From the sequence record NC_028927.1: a stretch of 64,000 nucleotides of DNA; one strand, written 5' to 3'. Position numbers and translations under genes: made by a program. The number at the start of each line of letters is the position of its first letter. The stretch's first letter is position 1. Source of the DNA: Escherichia phage slur02. Below are positions 953-46,715 of the stretch, in pieces. Below the pieces are notes generated by a model. The model searched no databases and was not told the DNA's origin. It saw nothing but the letters and a program-made list of their open reading frames with translations.

Positions 953-3649
953 TCAGCCAAACAGGAAGTCTAACGAAGCTTTTTCTTCATAGTCCATACC
1001 AGCCGATTCACACATGCCCGCAAGCGGTTTAACAAACGATTTTTGGAACAAAGTTGAGTAGTCAATCCAAGACAGTACGTCAGAACGAATTTCTTTTGGA
1101 AGTTCTGTTCCCGACGGCCAAGCAATGCACTTGTCACCAAATGGATTTCCTTCACGCAATGGAAGAACCATTACCTTATTTCCATCCAAAATTGGAGCTA
1201 CACCTAAACCGCTAACAGCTCGACGATAAGTTAGCACACCACGAATATGGAACGGACATTTAAATCCTGGCCAACCTTTATCATCATATTTCGCTATATC
1301 GTTCGCAGTTTTTACTTCAGCAATAACTTTATAGTCAAGCTGACGATATTCTTTCTCGAAGTTTTTGTAATATTCTTGGACAGACTCTTCACCTTCCTGA
1401 AGAATACGACGAATACTTTCTTCGAGAGCTTCTTGCACTGCTTTTGGTGTTGAACTCTGCTGAGTTTCCATACCCATGATTTTTAGATGTGGTTCAGCAA
1501 ATCGCTTATCTTCCATATCATAAACGTTCAGAGCATAACGCTTTTTCGCTTTCCAAAATCCGCCAACGCCCTTTGAACCAAGTGGAGGGCAAGAAATAGC
1601 TTCACGGTCCATATGCATCAGATGCTCGCGGTTATTCATATAATCACATAACTCACGATATGCAACATCAATCATAGGTTCCATCTTTTTCTTACCGAAC
1701 TGATTCATGAATTCAACTAAATCATTTTGTTCTTTAAAGCGGTCAAGACCAACTTTTTCAATAACTTTATCTACGCAAACATATACCGAATCAGTATCAC
1801 CTGCCGCGATGAAATCTTCACCATTAGTTCCGCATACTTTATTCAGATATTCATTAATTTTACGAGCAATCCACTGAATACCAACTTGGCCGAAAATTGT
1901 GATAGCAGTAGCATTTCGCAAATCATAGTAACGGAAATGAATATTACCAAGAGCACCATAAAGACTGTTAATGAGAATTTTACGGTTCAGCTGATTTGTG
2001 TTAGCAAGTGTAGCTGCTTTTTCACATTCTTCAATCAGACTATTGAGAACAGATTCAGTATAATTCGATAGTTCATTTAAGAAATCATCACTGAACTTAA
2101 CATATCGTTCAACTTCTGGTTTAGTTGAACAGGACCCTGCGCCTTTCATAATAATCTTTTTAATAGCTTCGGCATTCATTTCTTCAGCGAACATTTTCTT
2201 TTTCCAATCTTTACGCTGGAAAAATACTTTAGCGATTTCCTTTGGAATGATACCTTCTTGATGCTTGTCATACATCCATCCATTCGGAGAACAAGAATAT
2301 TCATCACTCGGTTTAGGAGCTGTTCCTGCGATATATTCATGAATTGGATGAACTTTAAACTGCCCACGAATAGTCTCAGGACTAATGTTAACCTGACGAA
2401 TAATGCTCGGATACAGAGACGTCAAGTCAAAACTCATAATATATCGACGAGCAATTGGTTTAGGTTCAAACACAAATGCACCCGGAAAACTCTGTTTAAC
2501 GTGCGAACCTTGTTGAGGAATAACCTTATGTTCACTTTTCAGTGAGTTAAAAATAATAGCATCCCAAGTTTTAATAGGACTCATTACACCAGAAAAAGGC
2601 ATTTTAGCATAATAAGACATACTTAAAACTAGATCGATAAACCCACGAATTTTATCAATCGCTTGAACTGATTCTACGTCAATGATGTTATAACTAATGT
2701 ATCGTTGATGATTAGTCTCACGAAGTTTATTAATAGGACCGTCGTATGGTAATTTACCTTTTTTGGTTTCATGTTGAGCAACTGATTCCAAAGAGAATGA
2801 CGGCAAATTAGTAAATGCGAATTTCTTATACAAATCTAAATAATCAAGAATAGATACGCCATCAATAGAATAAATTTCTTTGCTGCCGTACATATTTTGA
2901 ATTAGTTTAGATTTTACTCGACCGATTGGAGAGAAGCGTTTCATACTGCGTTCACCGAGAATCATTTTAACACGATTCATAATATACGGAACGTCAAATC
3001 CCTCAATATTCCAACCAGTAAAAATAGCAGGTCGTTTCTGTTCCCAGAGATTGATATATTCCATGAGCATATCACGCTCATTATCGAATGGCATATAAAT
3101 TACTCGGTCAAGAATTTCTTGAGGAACTTCATCACCACCTTCACAGTCAAGCTTAGCAGCTAACTTTGCATCCCATTTTGATACTGAACCGTACATTGAA
3201 TTCAAAAGGTCGAAAACATAAAAACGATCATCAATTGAATCATAATGAGTGATAGCATCAATTTCATATTCTGCTTTCATTGGGTCAGGAAATTTATCGC
3301 CAGTAACCTCAATGTCACAGTTAGCTACACGAACAAATTTTCGGTCATAAACAATTTCTGAACCGTATGTATCACTGATATAAGCGAGTTTAAAATCGTT
3401 CATACCGAGAGCTTCGAGACCGATGTCTTCCATTCGTTTCATCCAATCTCGAGCATCTTTCATTGATGGAAATTTTTGAGGAGCGCAGTTTTTACCATAG
3501 ATGTCTTTGTACTTTGACTCTTCCTTACAATGCCTAAACATAGTTGGAAGATATTCTACTTCACGAGTACGTTCCTTTCCGTTTTCATCAATATAACGTT
3601 CAACAATGTTATTTCCGACTGTTTCGATAGAGATATAAAATTCTTTCAT
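953..3649 (-). CDS. 43: DNA polymerase (family B), gp43
   Basis: 898-aa ORF, near-identical to T4 gp43 as recalled (MKEFYISIETVGNNIVERY...); exonuclease and polymerase motifs. Confidence 0.97.
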   Translation of the reverse strand: MKEFYISIETVGNNIVERYIDENGKERTREVEYLPTMFRHCKEESKYKDIYGKNCAPQKFPSMKDARDWMKRMEDIGLEALGMNDFKLAYISDTYGSEIVYDRKFVRVANCDIEVTGDKFPDPMKAEYEIDAITHYDSIDDRFYVFDLLNSMYGSVSKWDAKLAAKLDCEGGDEVPQEILDRVIYMPFDNERDMLMEYINLWEQKRPAIFTGWNIEGFDVPYIMNRVKMILGERSMKRFSPIGRVKSKLIQNMYGSKEIYSIDGVSILDYLDLYKKFAFTNLPSFSLESVAQHETKKGKLPYDGPINKLRETNHQRYISYNIIDVESVQAIDKIRGFIDLVLSMSYYAKMPFSGVMSPIKTWDAIIFNSLKSEHKVIPQQGSHVKQSFPGAFVFEPKPIARRYIMSFDLTSLYPSIIRQVNISPETIRGQFKVHPIHEYIAGTAPKPSDEYSCSPNGWMYDKHQEGIIPKEIAKVFFQRKDWKKKMFAEEMNAEAIKKIIMKGAGSCSTKPEVERYVKFSDDFLNELSNYTESVLNSLIEECEKAATLANTNQLNRKILINSLYGALGNIHFRYYDLRNATAITIFGQVGIQWIARKINEYLNKVCGTNGEDFIAAGDTDSVYVCVDKVIEKVGLDRFKEQNDLVEFMNQFGKKKMEPMIDVAYRELCDYMNNREHLMHMDREAISCPPLGSKGVGGFWKAKKRYALNVYDMEDKRFAEPHLKIMGMETQQSSTPKAVQEALEESIRRILQEGEESVQEYYKNFEKEYRQLDYKVIAEVKTANDIAKYDDKGWPGFKCPFHIRGVLTYRRAVSGLGVAPILDGNKVMVLPLREGNPFGDKCIAWPSGTELPKEIRSDVLSWIDYSTLFQKSFVKPLAGMCESAGMDYEEKASLDFLFG

Positions 3650-9187: not shown

Positions 9188-10203
9188 TGTGTTGCCTCTA
9201 CATATAACTGATTTGCATATTGAATAAGTGCTTCACGGTCAGAATCAGTGATGTCTGGAATTGCATTAATGTATTCTTCCATCAACGTCTGAAGAGATTG
9301 AACTTCAACTTCTTCACTGTCATCTGACTCGACAGAGTTATCAATTTTTGACACAACTCGTAATGAATGCACAACTTTTTCTAGTTCAGATTCGAACTTC
9401 GTTAGATTTTTGTCTACTTCAGTTACTATAACACGTACTGATAGATTTGTAAAATCTTTATAGTCAATTTTTCCTTTAAATGGATAATGAATTCTACGAT
9501 GCCAGGTAGTGTTGTTTGGAATAAATTCCATTCGTTCTGTTTCTGTATCAAACATCCAGAACCCACGAGGGTCATTCTCGTCACCTGCGGTTAGTGTCCA
9601 TGGTGTCCCAATATATCTGACGTTAGCAGCCTCAGAGATAGTATGGAAGTGACCAGACCACACTTCTTTATAAGTCTTAAGGAAATCAGGTTCAAGACCA
9701 TGAGATTTCATTCCTTTATAAAAATAAAATCCGTTCAGTTCCCAGTGACCAACGCAAAAAGAAGCAGATGAAGTTTTGATGTGTTCAAGAATTTCACCAG
9801 TATTTTCTTCACACATCCAAGGAATTAAATCAATTAAACATCCGTCAAAATCTACTGTAGTAGGCTTATCATACACTTTAACATTAGGATATTTAGCCAA
9901 AAGCTCAGTAGAAGCATTTGGAGTTAAAGTATTTTTAAAGTGCATATCATGGTTTCCTACAACAGTATGCAGTGTAATACCAGCATCATCAAGCATTTGA
10001 ACTATTTCACGAGCGAACTCCATAGTTTTATGCGTGATTGCTTTTCGCACATCAAAAATATCGCCGTATTGAATCCATGTAGTAATTCCATTTTTCTTAG
10101 AATATTCTATTGCTTGTTTAATTCCATCCAACTGAATGGATTGAATCCACTCATCATCGGCTTTAACACCTAAATGCCAATCACCTAAATTTAAAATTTT
10201 CAT
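9184..10203 (-). CDS. 47: recombination endonuclease subunit gp47 (Mre11/SbcD-like)
   Basis: 339 aa; phosphoesterase motifs GDWHLG and GNHD; T4 synteny. Confidence 0.93.
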   Translation of the reverse strand: MKILNLGDWHLGVKADDEWIQSIQLDGIKQAIEYSKKNGITTWIQYGDIFDVRKAITHKTMEFAREIVQMLDDAGITLHTVVGNHDMHFKNTLTPNASTELLAKYPNVKVYDKPTTVDFDGCLIDLIPWMCEENTGEILEHIKTSSASFCVGHWELNGFYFYKGMKSHGLEPDFLKTYKEVWSGHFHTISEAANVRYIGTPWTLTAGDENDPRGFWMFDTETERMEFIPNNTTWHRRIHYPFKGKIDYKDFTNLSVRVIVTEVDKNLTKFESELEKVVHSLRVVSKIDNSVESDDSEEVEVQSLQTLMEEYINAIPDITDSDREALIQYANQLYVEATQ

Positions 10204-36870: not shown

Positions 36871-37344
36871 TTATTTGAACGATTTAACGTACTGAATAGA
36901 ACCTTTACTATTTACAAAGGCAATTTTACCATTTTTATTATACATGGTAGCAGTACGTTGATAACCATAAGTTTGTTTACCAGATTGATAACCAACTAAT
37001 GCGAAATTATCTTCGCCCATTTTATTCTGTTTAGCGCGAATGCGTTCATGACCATGTGCCATAAGAACCTTAGCATCACCGGTTGCAATGGATCGACGAG
37101 TTTTTTCATCTTCAACTGTATTAACAAAGTCGTCAAATGAATCAAATTTAGCATGAGATTTATTATACAGTTTTCCATCTACTGCATAATTATATCCCTG
37201 TACATCCATCTCAACTTCTGTACCATCATCCAATACAGCAGTGATTTTTTGACCTTTTTTAAATTTCAAAAGATCAGTAAAAGATTCAGCAATAATTTGA
37301 GAATTAATAGCTGCTTCAGTGATAAATTCTTGATATGTTTTCAT
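36871..37344 (-). CDS. internal-protein-like packaged protein with capsid-targeting N-terminus
   Basis: 157 aa; N-terminus MKTYQEFITEAA matches the CTS recalled for T4 internal proteins (MKTYQEFIAE); AGGAA RBS. Confidence 0.55.
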   Translation of the reverse strand: MKTYQEFITEAAINSQIIAESFTDLLKFKKGQKITAVLDDGTEVEMDVQGYNYAVDGKLYNKSHAKFDSFDDFVNTVEDEKTRRSIATGDAKVLMAHGHERIRAKQNKMGEDNFALVGYQSGKQTYGYQRTATMYNKNGKIAFVNSKGSIQYVKSFK

Positions 37345-37360
37345 ATGATTCCTTTAATTT

Positions 37361-37678
37361 TTATTCTTTAGGAAAATTTTTAGAATATGCGTCGTAAAGC
37401 TTATTTCCAATACGACGAAAAACTCTAGCTGCAAAACGATTTTCTGGGTTTTTAATCATAATTTGCATCATATAAGTACCCGCGTCTGAAAGAGCTTCTT
37501 CATAGTACCCGTTAATTTCTTTAAGAGTCCTACGTTTACCACCAGGACCATCAACAGTGATTTTCCATTTACCTGTAGAAGTGCGACTCGGCGGCTCAAC
37601 TTGTTCAATCCAAATATAACCGCCTTCTACACGTTGTCCTGCAGCAGATTCTGCAATAAATTCTTGATATGTTTTCAT
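37361..37678 (-). CDS. internal-protein-like packaged protein with capsid-targeting N-terminus
   Basis: 105 aa; N-terminus MKTYQEFIAESA; basic; directly downstream of denV. Confidence 0.55.
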   Translation of the reverse strand: MKTYQEFIAESAAGQRVEGGYIWIEQVEPPSRTSTGKWKITVDGPGGKRRTLKEINGYYEEALSDAGTYMMQIMIKNPENRFAARVFRRIGNKLYDAYSKNFPKE

Positions 37679-37687
37679 ATGTTTCCT

Positions 37688-38104
37688 TTAAATGTAAATA
37701 TTTTTACCGTAATACTTATACCAATGTGGTTTCATTAAAATTTTTTCATCAAGTCGTTGTTGACTCAATTTAATAGCTGATTTGCATGGATTATAATCAT
37801 TTTTCCATTCTACTGGAATATCGCTGATGTCAGGAACTTCAGTATCTTTTATACTGAACCCTCGTTTTAAGCATTCCGTTATAATGTCTAATTGACGCTT
37901 TCGCAAAAATTCTAACTTATCGTAAAAGAACGTAACATGACCAGAACCTAAAATAAACTCGGAAGATATTTTAAAATCTTTAACGCGCTTACCGTTTGCC
38001 ACATGCTTACGAACTATACCAAAAACACGTGGCAATTCACGGTATTCTGCGATTAAATGTTGATCAGCAAGTTCAGATACTAAAGTCAAATTAATACGAG
38101 TCAT
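37688..38104 (-). CDS. denV: endonuclease V (pyrimidine-dimer DNA glycosylase)
   Basis: 138 aa; matches T4 DenV as recalled ([17 protein letters not shown]...). Confidence 0.93.
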
Positions 38105-41956: not shown

Positions 41957-41977
41957 AATGTTTTCCTTGTGATGATA

Positions 41978-42015
41978 AGTCTATAGTAACGCCTTCATAC
42001 TTAGATGTAAACTAT
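41978..42015 (-). promoter_or_regulatory. T4-type early promoter
   Basis: GTTTAC (42007-42012), spacer, GTTACTATAGACT. Confidence 0.5.
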
Positions 42016-42165
42016 TTCAACATCGCCTTTTGCTGTTTTATAACCTTCAGCCCAAGATACAACCGAGTTTTTATCTGAAGATTCAAATTCTGGCATTGGG
42101 CTTTCGCCAATGTTCACGCAGTATGTTTCTTCATTTTCGTCGAACCAAATAATTAAAGTAGTCAT
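42001..42165 (-). CDS. small hypothetical protein (54 aa)
   Basis: ATG with GGAG RBS; promoter-like sequence upstream; below track cutoff. Confidence 0.3.
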   Translation of the reverse strand: MTTLIIWFDENEETYCVNIGESPMPEFESSDKNSVVSWAEGYKTAKGDVEIVYI

Positions 42166-42233
42166 TTATTTCTCCGTTTCTGTATTTGTTTTGATAAGTC
42201 TATAATAACACCATCCTTGGTGTTTGTACACAA

Positions 42234-42497
42234 TTATTTCATATTATTGAAATATTCTTCTGCGATTTCGTCGTTATCATGGTAAACTTTAGAAGACAGT
42301 TTAACATAACCTTCAGCAGTGAACATGTTAATCACAACCTTTACAGTATACCACTGACCATCTTCATTACCCATTACTGCGTAAGTTTCAAACATCGGAT
42401 GGTCAGGACCGATAACTTTAATATCATTCACTGTACGACCGAAATCTTCTGAAACACATTTCATAAAGAAGTTGAACAGCTCACCGTAATTATCCAT
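42234..42497 (-). CDS. hypothetical protein (e.8 position)
   Basis: ORF 42234-42560; true start ATG 42495-42497 (MDNYGELF, GGAG RBS) downstream of an early promoter. Confidence 0.45.
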   Translation of the reverse strand: MDNYGELFNFFMKCVSEDFGRTVNDIKVIGPDHPMFETYAVMGNEDGQWYTVKVVINMFTAEGYVKLSSKVYHDNDEIAEEYFNNMK

Positions 42498-42535
42498 TTC
42501 ATTCTCCAAGTTGTTTTCTGTATCAGTAGTTGATA

Positions 42536-42575
42536 GTTGTATAGTACCATGGAAGGGCAAGGATGTAAACCGTTT
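42536..42575 (-). promoter_or_regulatory. T4-type early promoter with conserved leader
   Basis: GTTTAC (42565-42570), ATGGTACTATACAACTATCAACTACTGATACAGA. Confidence 0.6.
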
Positions 42576-42696
42576 TGTGAAAAAATTTTTAAAAAGTTTT
42601 GGGGAATTCTAGGGCAGGAAGGGGAAATCAAAGGATAGGATAATATATTATAAAGGGTAGAAACTAAATGATGTCTAGAGAGGCCTGGAAAGGCCT

Positions 42697-42734
42697 AGAT
42701 ACCAAAAAGCCCCAACCTTTCGGTCGGGGCTAAG
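42697..42734. repeat. direct repeat copy 1 (34 bp, terminator-containing)
   Basis: ACCAAAAAGCCCCAACCTTTCGGTCGGGGCTAAG identical at 42701-42734 and 43260-43293. Confidence 0.75.
42704..42731 (-). terminator. rho-independent terminator (copy 1 of repeat), downstream of the internal-protein-like gene
   Basis: minus strand GCCCCGACC-GAAA-GGUUGGGGC then UUUUU; identical to copy at 43263-43290. Confidence 0.7.
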
Positions 42735-42738
42735 AATG

Positions 42739-43212
42739 TTATTTGATTTGTTTAGCAGACCAAATGCGATCTTTAATAATTTTTTGGATGTCTTCAACAT
42801 ACTCTAGGTCATGAGCATGTGGATTATCTTTGAAACTATAAGCACGAGCTAGTTTTTGGCCTTCAGTTTTGATTACTAAAAGCTCTTTAAGGATAGCTTC
42901 ATATTTGGAGATAATTCCTTTAACAATATTTTTTTCTTGTGCAGCTTTAGGATCTGCTTTAGGAGCAGGTTTACCCGAAGCCTTTGCAAAAGCAGCGCCA
43001 GTAGCAACTAAACTTTTCCAGGCCATACTAACTGCATTTCCCGTAAATCCTTCCGCTTTCATGTCGCGTGCGAACTGGAATCGCGATTCATCAGAAGCAT
43101 CTTTATAGGAATATTTACCCGCTGTAATGGCTGCTTTTGCGACAGCTTGAATTTCGGTGCTAGATGCTTCATTTAACACCGCTTCATTTAAAAATTGAGT
43201 ATATGATTTCAT
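42739..43212 (-). CDS. internal-protein-like late protein with CTS-like N-terminus
   Basis: 157 aa; N-terminus MKSYTQFLNEAV resembles the capsid-targeting sequence; TATAAATA late promoter upstream; flanked by identical terminators. Confidence 0.55.
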   Translation of the reverse strand: MKSYTQFLNEAVLNEASSTEIQAVAKAAITAGKYSYKDASDESRFQFARDMKAEGFTGNAVSMAWKSLVATGAAFAKASGKPAPKADPKAAQEKNIVKGIISKYEAILKELLVIKTEGQKLARAYSFKDNPHAHDLEYVEDIQKIIKDRIWSAKQIK

Positions 43213-43252
43213 CTTATTTCCTGTTTTAATTCGTGGATTTAATATACTACTA

Positions 43253-43260
43253 TATTTATA
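43253..43260 (-). promoter_or_regulatory. late promoter for the internal-protein-like gene
   Basis: TATAAATA on minus strand about 40 bp upstream of ATG 43212. Confidence 0.6.
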
Positions 43261-43293
43261 CCAAAAAGCCCCAACCTTTCGGTCGGGGCTAAG
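43258..43293. repeat. direct repeat copy 2 (34 bp, terminator-containing)
   Basis: identical to copy 1; the two copies bracket the late promoter and internal-protein-like gene. Confidence 0.75.
43263..43290 (-). terminator. rho-independent terminator (copy 2 of repeat), ending the tRNA/stable-RNA transcription unit
   Basis: same 9-bp stem, GAAA loop and U5 tail; 34/34 nt identical to copy 1. Confidence 0.7.
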
Positions 43294-43599
43294 CCTTGCG
43301 GCAACCTTGTCGGGGTTCCACCTGCTAAGGCAAGTGTTTGTACGAAACGCCGGGATTCGAACCCGGTTATTAAGCAGTTGACGCTACTCAATATTTTTAA
43401 AAGGCCATATCTCGACCATATCCGAACGTTCCGTCAAAAACGCTACTCGGCTTACGGCAAAGATATTTCCTCGAATCGATAATTCGGTGCGCCGTTTCTG
43501 CTGTGATGTAAGAGGGCATCAATAAACGCAAAGATTATTAACGCAATTCCTTACTCAGGGAACATCAGTCCGACGACTTACCGGTAGCGACCCGGTTTC
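43292..43599 (-). ncRNA. non-coding region with a tRNA-like element (about 43342-43433); probable counterpart of the T4 stable RNAs (species 1/2)
   Basis: no ORF; acceptor-like stem CGGAACG/CGTTTCG plus canonical T-arm CCGGG-TTCGAAT-CCCGG, but no canonical anticodon arm; ends at a strong terminator. Confidence 0.4.
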
Positions 43600-43950
43600 T
43601 TAATATTCTTTTAAAGCATCAATCTGTTTACGGCGTTCACGCCATAAATCAATTGCTTCATACGCGGATTCAACATTTCGAATTGGACGGCATTTATATA
43701 AAGATTTGTGATTTTGATATTGCGTAGATAACGGAATTTTATCTAAAAGGTCTTTACGTTCAAAGTATTCGTAACCATCTAAGCCAAATGAACGATTTTT
43801 GAGAAATTGCCAATGACCAAATTCGTTTTGAATATAAATATAATCCGCATGTTGATAAAGTAAATTAATTTCACGAAATGAGATATGTTTTTCATATTCA
43901 TTGAAGTAAAATGTTAAATCATGAACTACTAAATAAACATTACCTTTCAT
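43600..43950 (-). CDS. hypothetical protein inside the tRNA/stable-RNA region
   Basis: 116 aa; GAGGAA RBS; between tRNA-Arg and the stable-RNA region, where T4 carries segB. Confidence 0.45.
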   Translation of the reverse strand: MKGNVYLVVHDLTFYFNEYEKHISFREINLLYQHADYIYIQNEFGHWQFLKNRSFGLDGYEYFERKDLLDKIPLSTQYQNHKSLYKCRPIRNVESAYEAIDLWRERRKQIDALKEY

Positions 43951-43968: not shown

Positions 43969-44044
43969 TGGTCGAGGCAGTAGGGATCGAACCTACGACC
44001 TAGGACTTAGAAGGTCCTTGCTCTTCCTTCTGAGCTATGCCCCG
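43969..44044 (-). tRNA. tRNA-Arg (anticodon UCU), CCA encoded
   Basis: manual cloverleaf: acceptor CGGGGCA/TGCCTCG, anticodon loop CTTCTAA, T-arm GTAGG-TTCGATC-CCTAC. Confidence 0.85.
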
Positions 44045-44048
44045 TAAT

Positions 44049-44124
44049 TGGGGTGACCGATGGGAGTCGAACCCATGACTACGAGAATCACAATCTCGAG
44101 TTCTACCAACTGAACTACGGCCAC
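44049..44124 (-). tRNA. tRNA-His (anticodon GUG), CCA encoded, no G-1 encoded
   Basis: manual cloverleaf: acceptor GTGGCCG/CGGTCAC, discriminator C, anticodon loop TTGTGAT; resembles E. coli tRNA-His as recalled. Confidence 0.8.
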
Positions 44125-44238
44125 ATTAATACCTACTCCAACAATCAAGATGTCTTCACACGAAATTAAGAGAAGAGTGATCAGTTCAACCCCTATAATC
44201 GCGTCAAGTAGATATTAATGTGACAGTTGTCACAAATT

Positions 44239-44313
44239 TGGCGGACGTGATAGGATTCGAACCTATAACCAATCGCTTAACAGGCGATCGCTCTACCATT
44301 GAGCTACACATCC
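44239..44313 (-). tRNA. tRNA-Asn (anticodon GUU), CCA encoded
   Basis: manual cloverleaf: acceptor GGATGTG/CACGTCC, anticodon stem ATCGC/GCGAT, loop CTGTTAA. Confidence 0.8.
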
Positions 44314-44317
44314 AAAT

Positions 44318-44404
44318 TGGTGGGGAGTGGTGGAGTCGAACCACCCGAGTCGCAATGACAATGAATTTACAGTCCACACCGCTACCTCTACGGGATAACT
44401 CCCC
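44318..44404 (-). tRNA. tRNA-Tyr (anticodon GUA), type II, CCA encoded
   Basis: acceptor GGGGAGT/ACTCCCC, anticodon loop CTGTAAA, long variable arm, T-arm GGTGG-TTCGACT-CCACC; anticodon stem has two G-U pairs. Confidence 0.7.
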
Positions 44405-44417
44405 TAATTCATAATTT

Positions 44418-44491
44418 GGTGGCCCTGGGTGGAATTGAACCACCATCTGGCGATTATGAGTCGCTTGCTTGAACCTTCCAGCTACAGGGCC
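44418..44491 (-). tRNA. tRNA with CAU anticodon (T4 tRNA-Ile-like, or Met), CCA encoded
   Basis: acceptor GGCCCTG/CAGGGCC, anticodon loop CTCATAA; occupies the Ile position of the T4 cluster order. Confidence 0.7.
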
Positions 44492-44492
44492 T

Positions 44493-44568
44493 TGGTGCTG
44501 ATTGACGGAATCGAACCGCCGACGTCCTCATTACAAGTGAGTTGCTCTACCTACTGAGCTAAATCAGC
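44493..44568 (-). tRNA. tRNA-Thr (anticodon UGU), CCA encoded
   Basis: acceptor GCTGATT/AATCAGC, anticodon loop CTTGTAA. Confidence 0.85.
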
Positions 44569-44574
44569 AAAAAC

Positions 44575-44664
44575 TGGCGGAGGCGATAGGATTTGAACCT
44601 ATGAGTCGCCGGAGCGACTGCCGGTTTTCAAGACCGGTGCATTAAACCACTCTGCCACGCCTCC
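44575..44664 (-). tRNA. tRNA-Ser (anticodon UGA), type II, CCA encoded
   Basis: acceptor GGAGGCG/CGCCTCC, anticodon stem CCGGT/ACCGG, loop CTTGAAA, long variable arm. Confidence 0.85.
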
Positions 44665-44666
44665 AG

Positions 44667-44740
44667 TCTCCATACAAGGATTTGAACCTTGGACCTCCTG
44701 ATCCCAAATCAGGCGCTCTACCAAACTGAGCTACACGGAG
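44667..44740 (-). tRNA. tRNA-Pro (anticodon UGG), CCA not encoded
   Basis: acceptor CTCCGTG/TATGGAG, anticodon loop TTTGGGA; 2 nt from tRNA-Ser. Confidence 0.8.
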
Positions 44741-44750
44741 TAAATTAAAT

Positions 44751-44824
<74 letters not shown>

Positions 44825-44829
44825 AAATT

Positions 44830-44916
44830 TGGTGCGAGAAGTGGGACTCGAACCCACAAGGAAATCATTCCGCAGCATTTTAAGTGCTGTGCCTTTACCA
44901 ATTTGACCATTCTCGC
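44830..44916 (-). tRNA. tRNA-Leu (anticodon UAA), type II, CCA encoded
   Basis: acceptor GCGAGAA/TTCTCGC, anticodon stem CAGCA/TGCTG, loop CTTAAAA, long variable arm. Confidence 0.85.
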
Positions 44917-44917
44917 G

Positions 44918-44990
44918 CTGGGAATAAAGGACTCGAACCTTTGCATCCTGGAATCAAAATCCAGTGCCTTACCAACTTGGCTAATTCCCA
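44918..44990 (-). tRNA. tRNA-Gln (anticodon UUG), CCA not encoded
   Basis: acceptor TGGGAAT/ATTCCCA, anticodon loop TTTTGAT; 1 nt from tRNA-Leu. Confidence 0.8.
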
Positions 44991-45762: not shown

Positions 45763-45948
45763 CTATTCACCTTTAGAAATTTTATCCGTAACGACAGCAA
45801 TTAAACCAATTAAAAATGCTACTACAAGTGAAAAAACATTTTCTGCTGTAGTTAATAATCCGCATATAAATCCAACAAACATTGAAAAACTAAAAGCAGA
45901 AGCAGAAATTGCAATAGCAACATTTCGAATTAATTCACAGCGTTTCAT
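45763..45948 (-). CDS. small membrane protein
   Basis: 61 aa, hydrophobic; early promoter upstream. Confidence 0.45.
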   Translation of the reverse strand: MKRCELIRNVAIAISASAFSFSMFVGFICGLLTTAENVFSLVVAFLIGLIAVVTDKISKGE

Positions 45949-45971
45949 TTTATTCTCCTCAGTAGTTGATA

Positions 45972-46010
45972 GGGTAATAGTATCACTACTAAAACCCTAT
46001 GTAAACAACT
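45972..46010 (-). promoter_or_regulatory. T4-type early promoter
   Basis: GTTTAC (46001-46006), spacer, GTGATACTATTACC. Confidence 0.5.
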
Positions 46011-46018
46011 TTGTGAAA

Positions 46019-46715
<697 letters not shown>

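Follow-up and report, generated by a model that had tools for sequence, protein, structure and literature searches.

A terminator-bounded, putatively late gene with an internal-protein-like leader at the polymorphic rnaC/e.8 site of T-even phages

Layout of the cassette and its product

We analysed a stretch of 64,000 nucleotides from Escherichia phage slur02 (NC_028927.1), hereafter the window, with a focus on a small gene that lies between the homologs of rnaC and e.8 and is enclosed by two copies of one terminator-like repeat. This gene, cassette A, occupies positions 42739..43212 on the minus strand, begins with MKSYTQFLNEAV and encodes protein A, of 157 amino acids; the open reading frame (ORF) and its start are those proposed in the first-pass annotation, a reading of the letters without database searches. 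The Tequatrovirus slur04 is 100% identical to the window across positions 42200-43700 (window position = record position - 10513). The elements of the cassette, in the direction of transcription, are as follows:

43258..43293, minus strand: T1, the upstream copy of the repeat, with a hairpin at 43290..43267 followed by TTTTTGG
43253..43260, minus strand: TATAAATA motif, sharing 2 bases with the end of the upstream repeat
43213..43252, minus strand: 5' untranslated region, containing an AGGAAA Shine-Dalgarno sequence (43222..43217)
43183..43212, minus strand: codons 1-10, the predicted capsid-targeting sequence MKSYTQFLNE, with a predicted gp21 cut after Glu10 (LNE/A)
42739..43212, minus strand: coding sequence of cassette A, 157 amino acids, isoelectric point (pI) 9.4, PHROG 2280, hypothetical protein YP_009625355.1 in slur04
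42699..42734, minus strand: T1', the downstream copy of the repeat and terminator of the cassette, with a hairpin at 42731..42708
42682..42697, minus strand: a second small hairpin, AGGCCT-TTCC-AGGCCT, directly after T1' and part of the e.8-side flank

The two copies of the repeat are 100% identical over 36 bp (42699-42734 and 43258-43293), and no third copy occurs in the window. An identical pair of this length within 64 kb cannot be due to chance. Read on the minus strand, each copy consists of AGCCCCGACC-GAAA-GGTTGGGGCT followed by TTTTTGG, with a stem of 10 pairs, 7 of them G-C. Identical flanking repeats and a GAAA-loop terminator had been noticed in the first pass; both observations stand, with the length corrected from 34 to 36 bp and the stem from 9 to 10 pairs. 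Both copies scored as terminator-like, and 56-nucleotide (nt) stretches containing them gave folding energies of -22.5 and -24.9 kcal/mol, with z scores of -3.9 and -3.4. The upstream copy, T1, forms the intrinsic terminator for the transcription unit made up of the tRNAs, rnaD and rnaC. The small hairpin that follows the downstream copy is shared with T2, G50 and RB69.

At the end of T1 lies the late-promoter motif TATAAATA (43260..43253), with the ATG 40 nt downstream. The junction of terminator and TATAAATA is kept in G50, Aplg8, AV119, OE5505 and Klebsiella phage KpV477. More broadly, the order of terminator, (T/A)ATAAATA and leader-bearing gene recurs at the same place in the Mosigvirus APCEc01 and the Jiaodavirus KpV477, the untranslated sequence of the latter being unrelated apart from this order.

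The N-terminus of protein A closely resembles the leaders that direct T4 internal proteins into the head. According to the review by Kuhn and Thomas (PMC9026906), the first ten residues of IPIII are enough for packaging, residues 4 and 7 mainly govern targeting and residues 8 and 10 processing, and the prohead protease gp21 cleaves after L/I-x-E. Protein A carries Y4, F7, L8 and E10 followed by Ala, so that all four positions critical in IPIII are kept, and it thus begins with a leader of about 10 residues bearing the targeting determinants at 4 and 7. Set against the MKTYQEFIAE/A of IPII and IPIII, Tyr4 and Phe7 are identical and position 8 has Leu for Ile, a permitted exchange. A second LNE/A follows at residues 13-15, where a cut is predicted after residue 15. 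The likeness to a capsid-targeting sequence suspected at the outset is borne out, and the L-x-E motif, after which cleavage is predicted, is present.

Relatives at 36-44% identity, or found as weaker profile matches, retain a start of the form xxx[YF]xxF[LV]xE (MLKFNEFLAE, MINFSDFLNE, MKSFSSFLNE, MLEYSEFLKE, MKFKEFLAE). Because residues 4, 7, 8 and 10 persist in members with 36-44% identity or less, the leader itself appears to be under selection. When the window was translated in all six frames, the loose pattern M[KE]x[YI]xx[FL][ILVM]xE occurred at the start of no more than three long ORFs (105-157 amino acids) and one 12-codon stretch.

The other two leader-bearing ORFs of the window, 37361-37678 and 36871-37344 (both on the minus strand), adjoin denV and e. 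The first encodes 105 amino acids with a perfect MKTYQEFIAE start, but its annotation is hypothetical and it is assigned to PHROG 3966, 'unknown function'; the second encodes 157 amino acids and belongs to PHROG 3155, internal virion protein. Relative to the T4 order denV-ipII-ipIII-e, the two are found on the opposite side of denV (37688-38104).

Protein A is small and basic like IPII and IPIII, with 25 lysines and arginines among its 157 residues and a pI of 9.4. A tblastn survey recovered cassette A from 510 phage records, full length in 468, with identities of 95-99% within Tequatrovirus and about 73% in Mosigvirus-type phages; the T4-like phages of Klebsiella have the N-terminal domain only. 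Pairwise comparison with six orthologs gave ratios of nonsynonymous to synonymous divergence (dN/dS) of 0.05-0.10, with dS up to 0.41. Cassette A is under purifying selection.

The family is tiny, comprising 13 clusters in a word-indexed search and 13 representatives in a full HMMER profile scan of 1.84 billion protein representatives, and its named members all come from T4-like phages. The same full scan found no cellular homolog or domain donor. All names read in a 216-member cluster of family A (40 read) and in a second, 38-member cluster were 'hypothetical' or 'uncharacterized'. Pfam yielded sub-threshold noise only (LAMB1, Shikimate_dh_N), and a sequence profile search of the PDB gave no match.

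An AlphaFold2 model of protein A (mean predicted local distance difference test score, pLDDT, 74) has a helical domain at the N-terminus (residues 17-75), followed by a disordered linker of Pro, Ala and Lys and, at the C-terminus, a helical hairpin. Compared with PDB structures the model had no significant match (best E = 0.95), and in BFVD it retrieved its own family and one weak T4-like match, from Serratia phage PS2. Across the family, the N-terminal domain bears a conserved AWKS motif and is joined to one of two unrelated C-terminal types, ending in ...DRIWSAKQIK or ...GDVGRHYKKL. In KpV477 (2495-2731 of the retrieved locus) an in-frame stop truncates the protein after the N-terminal domain. 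This architecture points to internal domain shuffling within the family.

Cassette A is almost certainly a real, expressed gene. In phage fD1, the product of g140, 98% identical to protein A, was identified at a strict threshold, using LC-MS/MS, in ultracentrifuged virions and scored as particle-associated, while the early-gene neighbours g138 and g139 (e.8) were not identified at that threshold. Virion proteomics had been put forward in the first pass as a check; what this detection of an ortholog in a virion preparation proves is translation. It says little about a place in the head, because the preparation also held non-structural and host proteins.

Two further candidates were tried and set aside. 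The GC content of the cassette (0.378, against 0.352 for the window) is unremarkable, and a recent horizontal acquisition argued from composition was rejected. An antisense ORF of 79 amino acids inside the cassette gene (42869-43108, plus strand) was taken as spurious, since purifying selection acts on the sense frame; it is also found in G50, OE5505 and AV119, only as a shadow of that frame.

Alternative alleles of the site

Presence or absence of the gene, bounded by the repeat, had been set beforehand as the test of a cassette, and such polymorphism is what we found. T4 and T2 contain exactly one copy of the repeat and no gene, with the e.8-side flank joined directly to rnaC; other phages contain one or two cassettes. 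Four states of the site were observed, listed here with the length of sequence separating the rnaC 3' end from the e.8 ATG:

No cassette and a single terminator copy (T4, T2): 263 nt
A alone (the window, Aplg8, AV119 and one IMG/VR contig): 808-822 nt
B alone (RB69): 949 nt
A and then B (G50, OE5505 and two IMG/VR contigs): 1497-1510 nt

Cassette B is a distinct gene of 187 amino acids that starts with MKTYAEFLTE and ends at its own, different terminator, CCCTATCTAAATGATAGGG. In the coordinates of the retrieved loci it lies at 3038-3601 in G50, 1851-2413 in RB69 and 1851-2413 in OE5505. By BLASTP, A and B have only the leader in common, yet both score in PHROG 2280, 'unknown function'. B was found in 165 phage records and is 95-99% identical in most of them, with Mosigvirus members at 96%. 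With A diverging by about 27% between these genera, this suggests that B has recently moved from one genus to another. Within a 151-member B cluster, the 40 names read were again 'hypothetical' or 'uncharacterized', except for one 'isopenicillin N synthase-like dioxygenase'.

Only three continuations follow the T-tract of a terminator: GTATAAATA, the start of A; AGTTTGAATCAC, the start of B; and GGTATCTAGGCC, the e.8 flank. The modules are therefore joined at the terminators. Among 60 records sampled evenly from the 687 that match the empty site of T4, 7 were empty and 20 held one cassette, the rest being longer or diverged; two near-perfect copies of the 36-mer occurred in about 96 of 420 records. 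These even samples were drawn from the GenBank phage set, as a terminator scan of IMG/VR returned only 4 loci, too few for a population survey.

The gene is also dispensable: besides its absence from T4 and T2, against some 510 records with it, frameshifted copies of A or B occur in OE5505, RB69, PYps55T, T4_ev240 and G28, both RB69 and OE5505 having a frameshifted B. Such copies are as expected of a dispensable accessory gene.

The history of the site is more readily read as one of loss than of gain. Cassette A is probably old here, because it occupies the same position in Tequatrovirus, Mosigvirus and Jiaodavirus and has diverged widely between genera. As A holds the site in several genera, loss is a likelier account of the empty alleles in T4 and T2 than a recent gain. 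Of the suggestion that the cassette was gained or exchanged between hairpins, the polymorphism and the joining at terminators thus survive, and the direction, a gain, is probably wrong. If the two terminators recombined, the product would be precisely the state seen in T4.

We consider it likely that modules are gained and lost through the terminators. The site would then be modular, with A and B each bringing its own 5' region and 3' terminator and standing head to tail at the T-tracts, and homologous or microhomology recombination between terminator copies would add or remove modules to yield none, A, B, or A with B. Identity of the repeats at 36 of 36 positions is not universal, with 2-3 differences in Aplg8 and in one IMG/VR contig and more in APCEc01; in slur04 it looks as though conversion or a recent exchange had been added to functional constraint.

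An alternative that we judge unlikely treats the hairpins as two working terminators kept alike by selection, and attributes the polymorphism to ordinary homologous exchange through the rnaC and e.8 flanks when phages infect together, or to co-conversion driven by a homing endonuclease such as SegB. The flanks are 93-97% identical across Tequatrovirus, ample for T4 recombination, whole-allele swaps through them would give the same four states, and homing endonuclease genes do reside in the tRNA clusters of T4 and AV119. Against this, all module boundaries fall exactly at the terminator T-tract and the empty allele keeps exactly one copy, a pattern predicted if the alleles arose by recombination between repeats. 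The empty ipI site, described below, appears to have the same one-copy geometry with a different repeat. As for selection on termination, the hairpins of APCEc01 differ in loop and stem yet both should form, so function alone does not require identity at all 36 positions. Co-conversion is countered by AV119, which carries both an endonuclease gene and cassette A; a link of cassette loss to segB was rejected on the same observation.

A candidate internal-protein locus

Taken together, the layout, the leader and the alleles make it fairly probable that this locus is a self-contained late unit for a new family of T-even internal proteins, placed at a third cassette site. In the sequence of events that we propose, T1 would stop early and middle transcription arriving from the tRNA cluster, TATAAATA would drive late transcription of the 157-amino-acid gene, and T1' would halt transcription before e.8. 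The leader MKSYTQFLNE would act as a capsid-targeting sequence that brings protein A into the prohead core, where gp21 would cut after LNE, so that the head would contain a basic protein of about 16 kDa. By analogy with known internal proteins, protein A may then be injected with the DNA, where it would most likely block a first-line host nuclease; our best guess for the target would be a type IV, modification-dependent restriction enzyme. The parts of this proposal differ in strength. Packaging through the leader is quite probable, an anti-defence role could fall either way, and the specific assignment as a type IV restriction inhibitor is doubtful.

Protein A shares much with the classical internal proteins of T-even phages, which are small, non-essential, in part basic (IPII, IPIII) and polymorphic in their presence. 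They likewise have a 10-residue leader with an aromatic residue at 4, Phe7 and L/I-x-E at 8-10, and they form families without mutual sequence similarity beyond that leader, as does A. The differences concern assignment and place: A belongs to PHROG 2280 rather than to PHROGs 4363, 7857 and 5341, and it lies at rnaC/e.8 instead of 57B/trna.4 or denV/e, so that the classical locus and its flanks are missing. Locus and flanks, we note, characterise the known sites and not the class of protein.

T4 Ip1, Ip2 and Ip3 each inhibit a distinct GmrSD variant (Silas et al. 2025, PMC12373910), and these authors count two Ip loci. A further precedent is Bas37_0260, a leader-bearing protein at the ipI locus that inhibits McrBC (HIDEN-SEQ preprint, 10.1101/2025.11.20.689424). 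It too is a formerly unannotated T-even protein recognised by its N-terminal packaging leader, and it shows that unannotated ORFs with such leaders can be real inhibitors of type IV restriction. Bas37_0260 differs from A in its classical ipI locus and demonstrated target.

Cassettes of internal-protein genes bounded by repeated hairpins are a concept known since 1994. Repoila et al. 1994 (EMBO J 13:4181), as cited by Arbiol et al. 2010 (PMC2839356), described promoter/stem-loop elements that flank the ip genes in 'the two highly variable IP loci'. Those cassettes resemble the present ones in having repeated stem-loop blocks on both sides, a varying number and identity of cassettes, and an empty site that keeps one block. 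Their blocks, however, combine GTTTAC early-type promoters with AT-rich stem-loops, whereas a GC-rich intrinsic terminator next to a putative late promoter forms the boundary here. In T4, early-promoter blocks of the classical kind can be seen on both the upstream and the downstream side of ipI, ipII and ipIII.

A second parallel is provided by the PeSL cassettes of RB49/phi1-type phages (Arbiol et al. 2010), in which short repeats likewise bracket ORFans and insertion, deletion and replacement by recombination have been proposed. PeSLs combine early sigma-70-like promoters with stem-loops and have yielded demonstrated circular excision products, as opposed to the terminators and putative late promoter found here. 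Full-text searches returned no paper linking e.8 or rnaC with internal proteins, although an earlier mention in Repoila 1994 or Comeau 2007 is possible. What appears new is the third site, the different boundary element and the two unannotated leader-bearing families.

Several observations weigh against the internal-protein interpretation. Neither the sequence nor the fold of protein A offers a functional clue, and it has no sequence or fold similarity to IPI* or to entries of the PDB; this lack says little about function, because the known inhibitors of type IV restriction share no fold. Packaging, cleavage, injection and anti-defence activity are predicted for A from its sequence and by analogy, in contrast to the shown GmrSD inhibition by Ip1-3. 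The fD1 preparation was impure, containing 113-137 of 277 phage proteins together with 672 host proteins and including DenV, lysozyme and NudE. The promoter motif TATAAATA occurs 13 times in the window against 10.4 +/- 3.4 expected from shuffles, which is chance level, and it is replaced by AATAAATA in the Mosigvirus ortholog (APCEc01) and in cassette B. As the motif is at chance frequency in this AT-rich window, the promoter call made in the first pass is based on where the motif lies and on its recurrence in other genera, and not just on its presence. Identity of about 97% over hundreds of phages, with strong purifying selection, is unlike a gene in an arms race, although internal proteins seem to change by being replaced and not by accumulating point mutations. 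The identity of the two terminators could, moreover, be maintained by selection for termination alone.

The conservation of the gene bears on a rival reading in which protein A is packaged but has no anti-defence role, acting instead as a basic, lysine-rich head-filling or DNA-associated protein in charge neutralisation or DNA packing, a part that has been considered for the abundant internal proteins of T4. Such a role is rather improbable, even though the high pI and the abundance of lysine and arginine would suit it, lysines of internal proteins contact DNA phosphates according to a review (PMC3012670), and strong purifying selection is more in keeping with a housekeeping-like function than with an arms race. 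T4 and T2 lack the gene and several phages have it as a pseudogene, which makes it dispensable for head structure, and all four internal proteins of known function inhibit restriction. A late cytoplasmic protein that is never packaged, with a leader likeness inherited through common descent of gene 5' ends, is likewise improbable: its sole proteomic match does come from a preparation that also held clearly non-structural proteins, and its 5' untranslated region and promoter are unlike those of classical ip genes, but residues 4, 7, 8 and 10 are kept even in the distant members, and expression from a putatively late-only promoter, with an insulating terminator on either side, fits a component of the virion.

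Extended to the whole group, the internal-protein interpretation would make rnaC/e.8 a third, hitherto unrecognised internal-protein hotspot of the Tevenvirinae, stitched together by intrinsic terminators in place of early-promoter stem-loops, with A (about 510 phages) and B (about 165 phages) as injected inhibitors of first-line defences that T4 and T2 cannot counter; we hold this wider view to be possible, if somewhat less than an even chance. The two families were overlooked because T4 and T2 lack both, and hundreds of records annotate them as hypothetical. A and B would enlarge the set of candidate injected anti-restriction proteins, and for gain-of-function tests with wild hosts T4 and T2 are null backgrounds supplied by nature. 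The design of modules with terminators at their ends also suggests a safe place for insertion, in which late promoter, leader and terminator are ready to hand, when therapeutic T4-like phages are to be engineered with packaged cargo.

Surroundings of the site and of ipI

Upstream of cassette A, all on the minus strand, lie 11 tRNA genes, a 116-amino-acid ORF and the homologs of the T4 stable RNAs, rnaD and rnaC; e.8 follows downstream. The nearest neighbours are as follows:

43341..43604, minus strand: rnaC and rnaD homologs, proximal neighbours; approximate coordinates, transferred from the T4 annotation by alignment offset
42541..42569, minus strand: early-type promoter-like site upstream of e.8 (TTTACA, 17-nt spacer, TACTAT with TG)
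42234..42497, minus strand: e.8 homolog, distal neighbour

Placement of rnaC and rnaD follows the annotation of Aplg8 and T4, as Rfam has no models for either and reported tRNAs only. The promoter-like site at 42541..42569 marks where the cassette-bearing intergenic site ends on its distal side. With T1 upstream and this promoter-like site downstream, cassette A sits in the intergenic gap between the terminator of one operon and the next promoter.

The ipI site, which the first-pass annotation took to be filled by unrelated ORFs, is in fact empty. The trna.4 homolog (45763-45948, 97% identical to T4) and 57B (46019-46474, 100% identical to T4) are 70 nt apart, and the gap between them in the window (45949-46018) contains no ORF. 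T4 ipI is bracketed by a 54-nt block with a GTTTAC promoter and a stem-loop, whose two copies (9533-9586 and 9900-9953 of the retrieved T4 locus) are 81% alike. By our own reading of the sequences, made without an alignment, the 70-nt gap of the window seems to retain one block of about 54 nt. The two phages are thus in mirror states, T4 with ipI filled and the rnaC site empty, the window phage the reverse.

The tRNA cluster of the window (43969-44990, minus strand) comprises Arg, His, Asn, Tyr, Met, Thr, Ser, Pro, Gly, Leu and Gln, with no segB. The T4 cluster has 8 tRNAs and segB, and those of T2, OE5505 and AV119 are arranged otherwise, some with inserted ORFs. The 116-amino-acid ORF lies at 43600-43950 (minus strand), between rnaD and tRNA-Arg. 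It is also present in T2, G50, OE5505, RB69 and APCEc01; T4 lacks it, and rnaD there abuts tRNA-Arg.

Beyond e.8, a 50-nt direct repeat, 72% identical between its copies (41967-42016 and 42186-42235), lies upstream of two successive small ORFs. On the minus strand the copies contain GTTTACA and, further on, a TATAGA/TATTAT-like hexamer, and they look like duplicated T4 early promoters of the kind proposed for module shuffling.

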